A stretch of DNA of 30,348 nt from a virus. Its lineage: Duplodnaviria; Heunggongvirae; Uroviricota; Caudoviricetes. This document shows, in pieces, positions 26,661-30,348 of the stretch; positions within the stretch are counted from its first letter, which is position 1; each line of letters starts with the position of its first letter. The DNA lies in the IMG/VR virus record IMGVR_UViG_2568526312_000003. One strand, written 5' to 3'. The notes below the pieces were generated by a model. That model was not told the DNA's origin and ran no database searches. It saw nothing but the letters and a program-made list of their open reading frames with translations. The translations under genes were made by a program, and so were the position numbers.

Positions 26661-26864
26661 ATGAGCAGCATATTTTTAACCGAAAATGAATTGCAAACGT
26701 TAACGGGCTGCAAATATGCAAGCCACCAGCGCAACTGGTTAATAAAAAATGGGCTTCCGTTCTATACCAATCGTAGTGGAAAACCGATCGTCAGTCGGGA
26801 ACTGTTTACCTGTATAAAAACTTTACCACCACGTGAGGCTGAACCTGATTTCGGTGCGATCTAA
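26661..26864 (+). CDS. xis: excisionase (Xis-like)
   Basis: 67 aa, directly upstream of int and overlapping it by 1 nt (TAATG). Confidence 0.65.
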   Translation: MSSIFLTENELQTLTGCKYASHQRNWLIKNGLPFYTNRSGKPIVSRELFTCIKTLPPREAEPDFGAI

Positions 26865-27415
26865 TGGGAAGACGAAGGAAAAATCCCGAACACGAAAAAT
26901 TACCGCCAAAGGTATACCCCAATAAATATAGTGTATGGAAACCGACATCCAGAGAATCTGTAACCTTAACTGCAATCGAGGATGGTTTAGCCGCATTATG
27001 GAAAAAGTATGAAGAAACGGTTAACCATCGCGATCGCGCAATGACATTTGGGCGTTTGTGGGAAAAATTTCTCGCCAGCGCCTATTACAGCGAGCTTAGT
27101 CCTAGAACTCAAAAAGATTATCTGCAACATCAAAAAAAGCTGCTGGCCGTATTCGGTAAGGTGCTGGCCGATTCTGTAAAACCAGAGCACATCAGACGAT
27201 ACATGGACAAAAGAGGCGAGCAGAGTAAAACGCAGGCAAACCATGAAAAAAGCAGTATGTCGCGCGTTTATAGTTGGGGGTATGAGCGAGGATACGTGAA
27301 GGCTAACCCATGTGCAGGTGTAAGTAAATTCAAGGCCAAAAACCGCGAACGATATGTAACCGACAAAGAATACCAGGCGTAAGCGTACAGCGAGGGCCGT
27401 ATTGACGGGGATGTG

Positions 27416-28954
27416 TTATTCAGCTGGCAGTGCTATGCGCCACGGAAGCAGTTCGCTGACCCGGTTGACCGGCCAGTCTGCTATGACGCCAAGCACATGG
27501 CGAAGGTAGCTTTCTGGATCCACGTCATTCAGTTTGCACGTCCCGATCAGGCTGTACAGTAGCGCTCCCCGCTCACCACCATGATCAGAGCCGAAGAACA
27601 GGAAGTTTTTACGACCCAGACTGACCGCCCGCAGGGCATTTTCAGCGATGTTGTTGTCGATTTCCACCCAGCCATCGTTCGCATAGTACGTCAGTGCCGG
27701 CCACTGGTTAAGTGCGTACGCGAACGCCTTCGCCAACTCTGAGTGTCGCGACAGGGTCTTCATCTTTTCACGCAACCAGCTTTCCAGGGATTTCAACAAC
27801 GGTTTCGTTTTTCGCTGACGTTCAGCAAGCCGCTGCTCTGCCGGCATTCCCCTTATATCCGCCTCTATGGCGTACAACTGACCGATCTGCTCCAGGGCTT
27901 CTTCCGTCAGTGCTGACGGGATGCGGACGTGCACATCGTGGATCTTTCGGCGGGCATGAGCCCAGCAGGCAGCTTCCGTTATCCCACCATTGCGATACAG
28001 CTCGTTGAACCCGGCGTACGCATCCGCTTGCAGCACACCGCTGAAGCAGGCAAGATGAGTCTGCGGATGGATGCCTTTTCTGTCCGGGCTGTAAGCGAAC
28101 CACACTGCAGGTGCCAACGCTGACCCTGCATTGCGGTCATCACGAACATACGCCCACAACCGCCCGGTCTTCGTCTTCTTATTACCCGGCAGCAGTACCT
28201 GGACCGGGGTATCATCGGCATGGAGTTTGCCGTCAGTCATGACATAGCCATGAAGCGCCTCTTCCAGCGGAGACAGCAGCCGGCAGCATGCATCCACCCA
28301 GCCCGACAGCAGTGAACGCCTCAGCTCCACACCTTGCCGGCCGTATATTTCTGACTGGCGATACAGCGGGGTGTGCTCTGCATACTTCGAGGTCAGCACG
28401 CGGGCCAGCAGCCCCGGTCCGGCGATACCCCGCTCGATGGGCCGCGAAGGTGCAGGTGCCTGCACGATGGCATCGCACTGAGTACAGGCATGTTTTTCCC
28501 GTACCGTCCGGATAACCCGGAAGGCGCTACGCATCAACTCCAGCTGTTCGGCGGTATCCTCGCCCAGATAGCTCAGTGAACCGCCGCAGTTCGGGCAGCA
28601 CGGCGCCGCAGGCAACAGTCGCTTTTCGTCACGGGGTAGTGATTCAGGGAACGGCTTACGGGTGCGGGTCTGACGCAACGGACGCTGTACTGCCGGGTCA
28701 TACACCCTACCAGTCAGCGTATCGCTCTCTTTCTGAAGCCGGTTCAGATCGGCTTCCATTTGTGCGATACGGCGGGAGACTTTTTCGGAACGACTGCCGA
28801 AGTTCATCCGGCGGAGTTTATCCAGCTGCGCCTGCAGATGGTCTATTTCGCGCTCCCGGTTGCTCAGCTTTTCCTGCAGGGCGTGGATCAGCGCTTCCTG
28901 TTCGGCCAGGCGCTGTTTCAGCAGGAAGATGTCGTCAGAAGAGATGTCGTTCAT
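27416..28954 (-). CDS. IS66-family transposase (TnpC)
   Basis: 512 aa with leucine-zipper N-terminus, CCPNCGG zinc motif and the IS66 transposase core. Confidence 0.9.
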
Positions 28955-29003
28955 AAGCCCGTATTTTACCGGGCTTATTCTGTGACAACCAGGATAAAGA
29001 GAT

Positions 29004-29351
29004 TTACAGCATGGTCAGGGAGGTCAGCAGCCGCTTAGGCTGTCGCCAGTCGATACCTTCCAGCAGCATCGCCAGCTGCGCCTGCGTAAGGAACACTTTG
29101 CCATCACGGGCTGACGGCCAGGCGAAGCGCCCACGCTCCAGCCGTTTGGTCAGGAGGCACAGTCCGTCACCGGTGGACCACAGCAGTTTAACCTGACTGC
29201 CGCTGCGGCCCCGGAAAATGAAAACATGGCCGGACATGGGATCGTCTTTCAGCGCCGTTTGTACTTTCGCAGCCAGGCCGTTGAAGCCATTTCTCATATC
29301 GGTGATACCGGCAACCAGCCAAATTTTGGTCCCGGAAGGTAACGGGATCAT
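29004..29351 (-). CDS. IS66-family Orf2 (TnpB)
   Basis: 115 aa, [21 protein letters not shown]...[15 protein letters not shown] conserved IS66 Orf2 pattern. Confidence 0.85.
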
Positions 29352-29749
29352 CGCTTCAGTTCCTGTATCAGCAGAGTCAGGAGCTTTTCGCTGACATTGC
29401 CATTGAAGCGGAGCGTCCCGTGCCGGAACGTTACCTCACAGCTGATACTGAGGGTTTCCGGGTCCTCTGCGAGCGATTCTGGCTGTTCGGCAGCTGCATC
29501 GAGAGTCACAGGAAGTAGCTGGGGGCTCTCTGAAGAAGGTAATAGCAGCTTTCCCTCGCGCCATTGTTGTCGCCATTTGAACAACAGATTGGCGTTAATG
29601 CCATTTTCAAGAGCAAGTTTTGAGATGGATATCCCGGGTTCACAGGAGGCAGCAACGAGCTGCTGTTTAAATTCGGGAGGATAATTAGGGCAGCCTTTTC
29701 GCCTGCCGGGAGTCACATTTTTCTGCATATCTGATACTTTGGTTCCCAC
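29348..29749 (-). CDS. IS66-family accessory protein Orf1 (TnpA)
   Basis: 133 aa, typical first ORF of the IS66 three-gene arrangement; ATGA overlap with Orf2. Confidence 0.8.
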   Translation of the reverse strand: MGTKVSDMQKNVTPGRRKGCPNYPPEFKQQLVAASCEPGISISKLALENGINANLLFKWRQQWREGKLLLPSSESPQLLPVTLDAAAEQPESLAEDPETLSISCEVTFRHGTLRFNGNVSEKLLTLLIQELKR

Positions 29750-30348
29750 TACTTATTTGGTGGACACCACTTTGTCTAATTCGTCAGATTCTGACCAGAC
29801 GGTTCAGGATGTACGCTTACTACCAGGCAGTATTAAGCGTTGCACCTCTTCCTGTTTTTATCGCAATGGAAATTGCCTATCTGTGTGCAGCGAGGGTTTC
29901 CGATGTGTTATCGCTGAAATGGGAGCAGATTGGAAACGACGGGATCTTTATCCAGCAAGGGAAAACAGGGAAAAAACAGATAAAAGCATGGAGTCCACGA
30001 TTACAGGCGGCGATCGAAAAAGCAAAACAGTTACCAACATCCGCCTATGTAATCAGCAATCAATACGGCAACCGATATATGTACAAAGGCTTTAACGAAA
30101 TGTGGGTAGAAGCAAGAAATCACGCAGGCAAAATTTCAGGTATTTTAACCGACTTCACCTTTCATGATCTGAAGGCGAAAGGAATTTCAGACTATGAAGG
30201 AAGCAGCCGGGATAAGCAACTTTTCTCTGGTCACAAAACCGAAGGGCAAGTGCTAATCTATGACAGGAAGGTTAAAGTTTCACCAACACTTGATGTCCCG
30301 TTACCTGAAAATATTCCAAGTAATTCCAAGTGTGATTTTTGTCACTGA

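Follow-up and report, generated by a model that had tools for sequence, protein, structure and literature searches.

An ISEc8 insertion in the integrase gene of an Sp14/CP-933U-type prophage of Escherichia coli O157:H7

The int locus and its insertion sequence

We analyzed a 30,348-nt stretch of prophage DNA (the window) in which an integrase gene, int, is present in two pieces. Immediately upstream lies a DUF4224 gene (26661–26864, plus strand) that encodes a 67-aa putative excisionase-like partner of int. Its product matches the full Pfam domain (DUF4224, E = 3.8e-15), its stop codon overlaps the ATG of int, and the gene is annotated likewise at identical O157:H7 loci. The 5' part of int (26864–27378, plus strand, nt 1–515) specifies residues 1–172 with the arm-binding and core-binding domains, and the 3' part (29829–30348, plus strand) specifies residues 173–344 with the catalytic domain, including R194, K217, H284, K287, H307, and Y316. 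Between them sits an apparently intact, 2442-bp ISEc8 element of the IS66 family (27379–29820), delimited by its ends and by identity to annotated copies. It lies on the minus strand, with its genes antisense to int.

Three genes, all on the minus strand, make up the element. The largest, tnpC (27416–28954), encodes a 512-aa IS66 DDE transposase with matches to DDE_Tnp_IS66 (E = 2e-106), zf-IS66, LZ_Tnp_IS66, and DDE_Tnp_IS66_C. The accessory genes are tnpB (29004–29351; 115 aa; TnpB_IS66, E = 1e-38) and tnpA (29348–29749; HTH_Tnp_1, E = 2e-12), the latter encoding a helix-turn-helix protein whose longest ORF is 133 aa and for which gene callers use a 126-aa start. All Pfam matches of the three products exceed the curated cut-offs. 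The terminal inverted repeats (GTAAGCGTACAG..., at 27379–27400 and 29799–29820) are 22 nt long and imperfect, the two arms being 77% complementary. On either side stands the same 8-bp sequence, TACCAGGC, at 27371–27378 and 29821–29828; this direct repeat is perfect and cannot be extended in either direction.

Over its full length, the element shows 99.9–100% DNA identity to RefSeq copies from O157:H7 annotated as "IS66-like element ISEc8 family transposase". Eleven other ISEc8 copies are likewise 2442 bp long with a perfect 8-bp duplication, and the same length, ends, and 8-bp duplications recur in a set of 14 copies. By its gene set, ends, duplication, and near-identity, the element is a member of the IS66 family and of ISEc8, sharing with the ISEc8 of EHEC O157:H7 the length of 2442 bp, the GTAAGCG... 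inverted repeats, the tnpA-tnpB-tnpC layout, and the 8-bp duplication. Its location, at TACCAGGC in int, is the sole difference from known copies. The first-pass annotation, which had placed an IS66-family element of exactly this length within int between perfect 8-bp repeats, was therefore correct on this point.

Removal of the element and one copy of the duplication joins 26864–27378 to 29829–30348 in a stop-free ORF of 1035 nt encoding 344 aa, in agreement with the continuous integrase of about 344 aa that had been predicted. Comparison with uninterrupted alleles of related strains, which had been proposed as a check, gave 100% DNA identity to a tyrosine recombinase gene (e.g., WP_046671474.1, strain Show KS 470-1), and 301 complete O157:H7 genomes with uninterrupted int contain a match of at least 99%. 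The two IS-flanked fragments are parts of a single gene, and ISEc8 separates the core-binding domain from the catalytic domain.

The restored product is a lambda Int-type tyrosine recombinase in which a catalytic domain follows a core-binding domain. Pfam reports Phage_integrase (PF00589, E = 5e-11, above cut-off) at residues 182–316; Phage_int_M and SAM-like matches (PF22022, PF13495) at residues 61–153 have scores below the cut-offs. Lambda Int (PDB 1Z1B, 1Z1G, 1P7D, 1AE9) has the same three-domain layout and aligns with int residues 102–312 (E = 4e-10), with matches to lambda R212, K235, H308, and H333 and with the conserved Tyr in the place of lambda Y342. Unlike lambda Int, with which sequence similarity is low, this integrase has Lys in the position of lambda R311 and a tRNA gene as its attachment site. 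Within the catalytic set R-K-H-R-H-Y, R194, K217, H284, H307, and Y316 are all present and are invariant among 20 homologues.

Identity of the prophage and support for the insertion

In the source contig, tRNA-Ser(CGA) lies 27 bp past the int stop codon, outside the window, with mtfA and yeeJ beyond it; the succession DUF4224-int, tRNA-Ser (serU), mtfA recurs in complete O157:H7 genomes. Positions 1–27381 of the window are 99.96% identical to a prophage of strain FRIK944 over 27.4 kb, and positions 1–25000 are covered to at least 80% in 292 genomes, with top matches at 100.0%. By its serU/mtfA site and near-identity, the element-bearing prophage is of the Sp14/CP-933U type, a lambdoid prophage of O157:H7. 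We take the serU prophage of O157:H7 to be the one named Sp14 in Sakai and CP-933U in EDL933. Sp14/CP-933U shares not only the integration site, where int is directly followed by tRNA-Ser and mtfA, but also the gene order: terminase, lysis, Q, O/P, cro/cI, dicB, Exo VIII-type exonuclease, DUF4224, and int. The published account of Sp14 gives it as a lambdoid prophage that has a recombination gene of the Exo VIII type and whose int is apparently intact (PMC2669165), whereas int is interrupted by ISEc8 in the prophage studied here. A literature search for CP-933U together with ISEc8 returned nothing.

The window begins at the end of contig AVCD01000001.1, within an S49 protease gene, and is therefore a partial prophage. 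It covers only the packaging-to-int half of an Sp14/CP-933U-type prophage, and the head, tail, and far-side cargo genes are absent from it.

Since the window stems from a draft assembly (GCA_000513035.1), we considered whether repeat mis-assembly might have misplaced the IS within an int that is really intact. The first kilobase of the source contig contains many probable errors, and the exact int-ISEc8 junction is absent from the 5426 complete E. coli genomes searched. However, the duplication is perfect at 8 bp and the element measures exactly 2442 bp, and beyond the first 2 kb, IS aside, the window differs from FRIK944 by one substitution and one indel. The second, independent draft assembly GCA_012551735.2 also argues against an artefact, because a contig in it encodes the same 172-aa truncated int product, with the stop codon supplied by the IS end. 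This independent support is limited to the left junction, as the ORF at the right junction (179 aa) is found in the source assembly only. Taken together, these observations make mis-assembly extremely improbable.

Predicted consequences for excision

The insertion interrupts int after codon 172, corresponding approximately to residue 187 of lambda Int. No intact, expressible int frame is present, as codon 172 is followed by 2442 bp of IS. The residual 5' frame enters the IS as GC|G TAA, yielding the 172-aa product (ORF 26864–27382). Alignment to the lambda Int structures places all six active-site positions 3' of the insertion, and Int activity should therefore be lost. Judged by its sequence, the int allele of this prophage is almost certainly null, and the prophage should have lost self-encoded Int activity, as the first-pass annotation had concluded when it called the integrase inactivated.

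The course of events that we consider very probable is that ISEc8 transposed into int of a serU Sp14/CP-933U-type prophage and split the gene, so that active Int is no longer made and self-excision is lost. A functional-looking ISEc8 would have entered int of a lambdoid prophage residing beside tRNA-Ser(CGA) serU and mtfA, generating the usual 8-bp duplication and breaking the gene after codon 172. The 5' piece retains the capacity to encode the arm-binding and core-binding domains (172 aa), and 2.4 kb of antisense IS now lies between the catalytic domain and its promoter and start codon. Without active Int, the prophage would be unable to catalyze its own site-specific excision or re-integration, and its movement would presumably require homologous recombination, Int acting in trans, or the precise loss of the IS. 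To call such a prophage locked in place would be reasonable, if adding little.

Comparable cases are known from O157. In Sakai, Sp3, Sp11, and Sp12 are defective lambdoid prophages with a disrupted int, predicted to be non-excisable and with no circular forms reported (PMC2669165). The Stx2c prophage of strain 9000 carries an xis::IS629 allele, described as "IS entrapment", and is likewise predicted not to excise (PMC5359411). All share a broken recombination module with the present prophage; they are other prophages with other lesions, whereas here ISEc8 lies in a serU-type int.

Excision might nevertheless proceed through the integrase of another prophage, reassembly of the Int fragments, or precise loss of ISEc8, a scenario that we regard as quite unlikely. 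Direct repeats of 8 bp flanking an IS allow rare precise excision, and such repeats are present here. Defective O157 prophages are documented to help one another, as in the packaging of Sp4 with the terminase of another prophage (PMC2669165). For int, however, the type occurs at a median of one place per O157:H7 genome, and this single copy makes a trans-acting close paralogue unlikely. Moreover, lambda-family tyrosine integrases are specific for their own arm and core sites. On the catalytic side, an in-frame ATG 12 nt within the IS end opens a 179-aa ORF (29809–30348) over the catalytic domain, but this ORF lacks the start of that domain, its ATG has no spaced Shine-Dalgarno sequence, and a promoter scan found no consensus match pointing from the IS into the catalytic fragment. 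To our knowledge, isolated catalytic domains of lambda Int do not recombine.

It is also conceivable, although unlikely, that the insertion had no functional effect, Int or the entire excision process having been inactive by the time ISEc8 came in. Asadulghani et al. judged Sp14 Xis to be probably non-functional and obtained only trace circles upon induction; yet circular Sp14 was detected in Sakai, where int is intact, at a low level, unpackaged, and only after mitomycin C (PMC2669165). The present allele has Lys287 at the Arg-II position, but this is a family trait, found in every one of 20 homologues with identities as low as 55%, and we rejected it as the mark of a dead allele. The allele also lacks a Tyr that is nearly invariant elsewhere in the N-terminal domain, and its C-terminal tail is VNTR-shifted: the 13-bp unit GAAAATATTCCAA (30307–30319, plus strand) occurs once here, against two or three copies in other strains of O157:H7, and the reading frame of the tail changes with the number of copies. 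In other lineages, the same int exists in nonsense and frameshift versions. Against prior inactivation, int is, apart from the short 3'-end repeat, uninterrupted and at least 99% identical in about 300 genomes, and the DUF4224 gene has a full-length match to its Pfam model.

Even if loss of self-excision through ISEc8 is the preferred account, the IS may make little difference in practice. Sp14 with an intact int barely excises, and about 300 complete O157:H7 genomes retain the prophage with int unbroken, so that the IS changes little; the serotype inherits the prophage stably even where int is whole.

Other lesions and recurrent insertions in int

The first-pass annotation also listed frameshifts in terminase, portal, and protease, and these fared differently. 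The portal frameshift at position 1944 is probably real, with the same 335-aa product encoded on 13 other contigs. FRIK944 has an identical terminase large-subunit sequence, to which PGAP assigns a frameshift, and the lesion is therefore not strain-specific. The protease region is another matter: the first 1085 bp of the contig contain seven 1-bp indels and not one substitution, the indels are not shared with FRIK944 or, apparently, with the other top-scoring genomes (tied score), and Illumina-derived contigs encode the full 501-aa protease. Private to this assembly, they most likely arose as errors of sequencing or assembly. For annotation this carries a warning, since the protease frameshifts, which account for some of the apparent decay, most likely reflect contig-end error in a window that is only a partial prophage. 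We give that warning more weight than the insertion itself.

In the identical FRIK944 copy of the prophage, the head genes are deleted. With lesions in terminase and head genes, and with the portal frameshifted in this sublineage, the prophage was already defective, and the insertion represents a further step in its decay. An insertion of a known element into a known gene by a known phenomenon, in a defective O157:H7 prophage, is real but ordinary prophage decay. It adds one more lesion, within one O157:H7 sublineage (at least two assemblies), to a prophage already unable to make particles. The int::ISEc8 allele can serve as a strain marker, and it illustrates the fixing of prophages in EHEC by IS elements.

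A new side result is the recurrence of ISEc8 within this gene. ISEc8 occupies at least four sites in the serU-type int family, which count as independent insertions; its orientation is the same at all of them, and three lie within 60 bp of one another. Four of the 5426 complete genomes carry ISEc8 in a serU-type int, at sites other than TACCAGGC. In another lineage, a nonsense mutation occupies the very codon that borders the present insertion. IS66-family elements are usually regarded as low in target preference. Tentatively, int codons ~160–185 could be a regional hot spot for ISEc8, or knock-outs of the serU-prophage int could have been favored repeatedly in EHEC; we hold this pair of explanations to be possible but rather doubtful. 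Were this a hot spot, a target signal could be defined for IS66-family elements, and a 60-bp substrate would allow its study. The recurrent same-orientation insertions are the sole part of this work that could lead somewhere new.

Three minor observations concern the target region and its alleles. Many of the duplications flanking 11 other ISEc8 copies contain CAG or CAGG; this sample is biased toward flanks like those of the window, having been ranked by BLAST partly on flank similarity, and we drew no target consensus from it. One protein cluster (P0122, contig L017) was considered as evidence for a further insertion and rejected, as it ends in int without IS sequence; it represents an allele of int with a 21-bp in-frame deletion. 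Finally, inspection of the target region by eye showed seven nucleotides, TAAGCGT, that match the IS end.

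ISEc8 insertion within the integrase gene

The integrase gene (int) had been described in the first-pass annotation as interrupted by a 2442-bp IS66-family element flanked by a perfect 8-bp duplication, a description borne out by coordinates, Pfam domains, and element identity. Two direct copies of the target-site duplication TACCAGGC (27371-27378 and 29821-29828) match perfectly, with no further matching base on either flank, and enclose exactly 2442 bp (27379-29820) carrying minus-strand genes. The element has imperfect 22-nt terminal inverted repeats, opening with GTAAGCGTACAG and closing with its reverse complement. 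Its three minus-strand ORFs correspond in Pfam to tnpA (HTH_Tnp_1), tnpB (TnpB_IS66), and tnpC (DDE_Tnp_IS66, E=2e-106, plus zf-IS66, LZ_Tnp_IS66, and DDE_Tnp_IS66_C modules). In a search of 5426 complete E. coli genomes, it is 99.9-100% identical over its full length to copies labeled in RefSeq as 'IS66-like element ISEc8 family transposase'; judged by sequence, the inserted element is ISEc8 itself. All 14 copies inspected in other genomes (three in the same int, 11 at unrelated loci) are 2442 bp long with perfect 8-bp duplications.

When 26864-27378 is fused to 29829-30348, the resulting 1035 nt encode 344 amino acids without a stop. Because this joined frame is open and matches, at 100% DNA identity, an annotated tyrosine recombinase gene that is uninterrupted in O157:H7 strains, the two pieces represent one gene, and removal of the element does restore the continuous integrase of ~344 aa originally proposed. 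The restored gene is matched at ≥99% by 301 complete E. coli genomes.

The restored protein contains a Pfam Phage_integrase domain at residues 182-316 and weaker core-binding domain matches at 61-153, and crystal structures of lambda Int align with residues 102-312. This alignment and a 20-sequence family alignment place the active-site positions at R194, K217, H284, K287, H307, and Y316. All six lie 3' of ISEc8, which follows the second base of codon 172, corresponding approximately to lambda Int residue 187 by manual count along the structure alignment and thus falling just within the catalytic domain. The 5' piece reads GC|G TAA into the element, leaving a 172-aa arm-binding and core-binding fragment, and the 2.4 kb element, antisense to int, separates the catalytic piece from its promoter and start codon. 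The latter piece forms a 179-aa ORF (29809-30348) with an in-frame ATG provided by the element's end, which AGGA touches directly, without spacing. As int of this type is present in one copy per O157:H7 genome, no near-identical paralogue can substitute. We consider int::ISEc8 a null allele, inferring loss of activity from its observed structure, because the catalytic part is split off, a promoter scan found no promoter-like site directed toward it, and the gene is single-copy.

Repeated disruption of int in related prophages

ISEc8 occupies the same int in four complete genomes, all at sites other than that of the window. In 2014C-3061, OkiPb01680, and OkiPb01700 (the last assigned from its identical match in the genome search), the duplication is CCTGTTTT, 30 bp downstream of the window site; in 2013C-3264 it is GAACGATA, 22 bp upstream. 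A fourth site, near int nt 352, occurs in draft genome GCA_053267375.1 and is represented by protein cluster P0123 (59 members); the protein's tail is the translated left end of ISEc8. The sites span window positions 27206-27410 (int nt ~350-545), with counterparts at 6805-6812, 6751-6758, and ~750-758 in loci L001, L002, and L016, respectively. All four share one orientation, three (GAACGATA, TACCAGGC, and CCTGTTTT) lie within 60 bp, and the four insertions are independent of one another. In a post hoc simulation with three events placed uniformly along the gene (1035 bp), their starts fell within a span of ≤52 bp with p ~0.007.

Other lesions of int occur in other lineages. In P0121 (381 members), CAG has become TAG at Gln171, directly before the window insertion point (808-812 in locus L015, equivalent to window 27374-27376). 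Clusters P0125 and P0126 carry frameshifts, and P0122 (locus L017) has a 21-bp in-frame deletion. The clustered insertions and the nonsense and frameshift alleles point to int having been inactivated repeatedly in serU prophages, and may also reflect a regional preference of ISEc8 within the gene. An attempt to define an ISEc8 target motif was confounded by a biased sample of copies.

IS disruption of recombination genes in O157 prophages has been described previously (PMC2669165; PMC5359411, 'IS entrapment'). The gene studied here is the known serU-prophage integrase, and the allele amounts to a variation, at the strain level, on a familiar theme. This int::ISEc8 allele is absent from the 5426 complete E. 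coli genomes, and a literature search found no paper on it. The clustering of independent insertions in a short stretch of int is the sole thread with some promise.

Prophage setting, excision, and decay

The source contig, AVCD01000001.1 (assembly GCA_000513035.1, 92.6 kb), agrees with the window at 100% identity in the 9.5 kb that was compared, and window position 1 corresponds by coordinates to about its position 2. The window opens at the contig end, inside an S49 head-protease gene, and runs as far as the stop codon of int; it covers the packaging-to-int part of a prophage rather than a complete one. An exact look-up of the truncated 172-aa product located it on this contig and also in a second assembly, GCA_012551735.2, on an 844-bp contig that breaks at the element. 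On the source contig, int stops 27 bp short of tRNA-Ser(CGA), beyond which lie mtfA, tRNA-Asn, and yeeJ, and complete O157:H7 genomes share this neighborhood beyond int. The host prophage is the one at serU, which goes by the names Sp14 (Sakai) and CP-933U (EDL933).

Window positions 1-27381 are 99.96% identical to the prophage of FRIK944, an O157:H7 strain. There, genes for S49 peptidase, portal, head-tail joining protein, and terminase large and small subunits are followed by a PerC-family regulator, lysis genes, IS1203, a SASA esterase, three tRNAs, Q, and RusA, and then by replication genes, Cro/CI-type and LexA-family repressors, DicB, an 823-aa exonuclease, DUF4224, and int. The IS3-family, IS1203/IS629-like element (window ~9382-10702; ORFs 9436-9762 and 9759-10649), also present in FRIK944, sits between the holin and SASA-family esterase genes. 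The three tRNA genes (13661-13910, minus strand) are called by ARAGORN as Arg(TCT), Arg(TCG), and a CAT-anticodon 'Met', the last of which is a tRNA-Ile in the RefSeq annotation of FRIK944, where the sequence is identical.

It is plausible that int::ISEc8 locks the prophage in place, with small consequence. Among all 18 Sakai prophages examined by Asadulghani et al. (PMC2669165), Sp3, Sp11, and Sp12, with disrupted int, were expected not to excise and do not feature among those yielding circles, a precedent that supports this reading. Sp14 itself has an apparently intact int and a doubtful Xis; its circles were seen only after mitomycin C, clearly below the levels of other prophages, arose as a side effect of the regional replication that Sp15 drives, and were not packaged (PMC2669165). 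The baseline excision being lost would therefore be very low. Retention in the serotype is also independent of int breakage, since ≥80% of this half of the prophage is kept by 292 complete genomes, and int is uninterrupted in about 300.

The first-pass annotation had also listed frameshifts in terminase, portal, and protease. Base-by-base alignment, made with FRIK944 alone, shows one substitution and ten 1-bp indels over 27.4 kb. Seven of these indels fall within positions 1-1085 (the protease gene and contig end), where insertions and deletions alternate with zero substitutions and cut the S49 protease into 99-, 243-, and 60-aa fragments. They appear private to the source assembly, because the best-scoring complete genomes tie at one score over this prophage. 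The full 501-aa protease is encoded on Illumina-derived contigs having the same portal allele, and the indels are most likely assembly errors rather than pseudogenization. The portal gene (1351-2943, minus strand) has C3 at 1944 (C4 in FRIK944), giving a 335-aa product; this is probably a real sublineage allele, as an identical product is encoded by 13 further contigs, some of them from assemblies of Illumina runs. The window matches FRIK944 exactly across the terminase large-subunit region, and PGAP flags the FRIK944 gene as frameshifted. With this flag and a truncated major capsid gene in FRIK944, the prophage was already incapable of building particles unaided. A T5 run at 21572 (T6 in FRIK944) would, if genuine, shorten a YdaT-family toxin-like gene (ORF 21456-21788, minus strand) to 110 aa from 141 aa.

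Sequence variation in the integrase

The second catalytic Arg of lambda Int, Arg311, is replaced in the restored protein by Lys287 (30169-30171; motif HDLKAKGISDY). Lys occupies this position in 20 of 20 aligned homologues, down to 55% identity, so that across this alignment the family as a whole departs from the canonical active-site set of tyrosine recombinases.

At residues 22-25 (window ~26927-26938), O157:H7 Int has KYS-VWKP, against KYSYVWKP in nearly all relatives; its arm-binding domain lacks a single Tyr codon that is otherwise almost invariant.

The 3' end of int contains one, two, or three copies of a 13-bp unit, GAAAATATTCCAA, depending on the O157:H7 strain (window 30307-30319; L005 5003-5041 and L006 ~36860-36885 in two other loci). 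One copy gives the 344-aa protein ending in PSNSKCDFCH, and three copies give 359 aa. The one-copy tail in the window is probably derived, because the two-copy reading, ending in PRKYSK, is the frame common to distant homologues.
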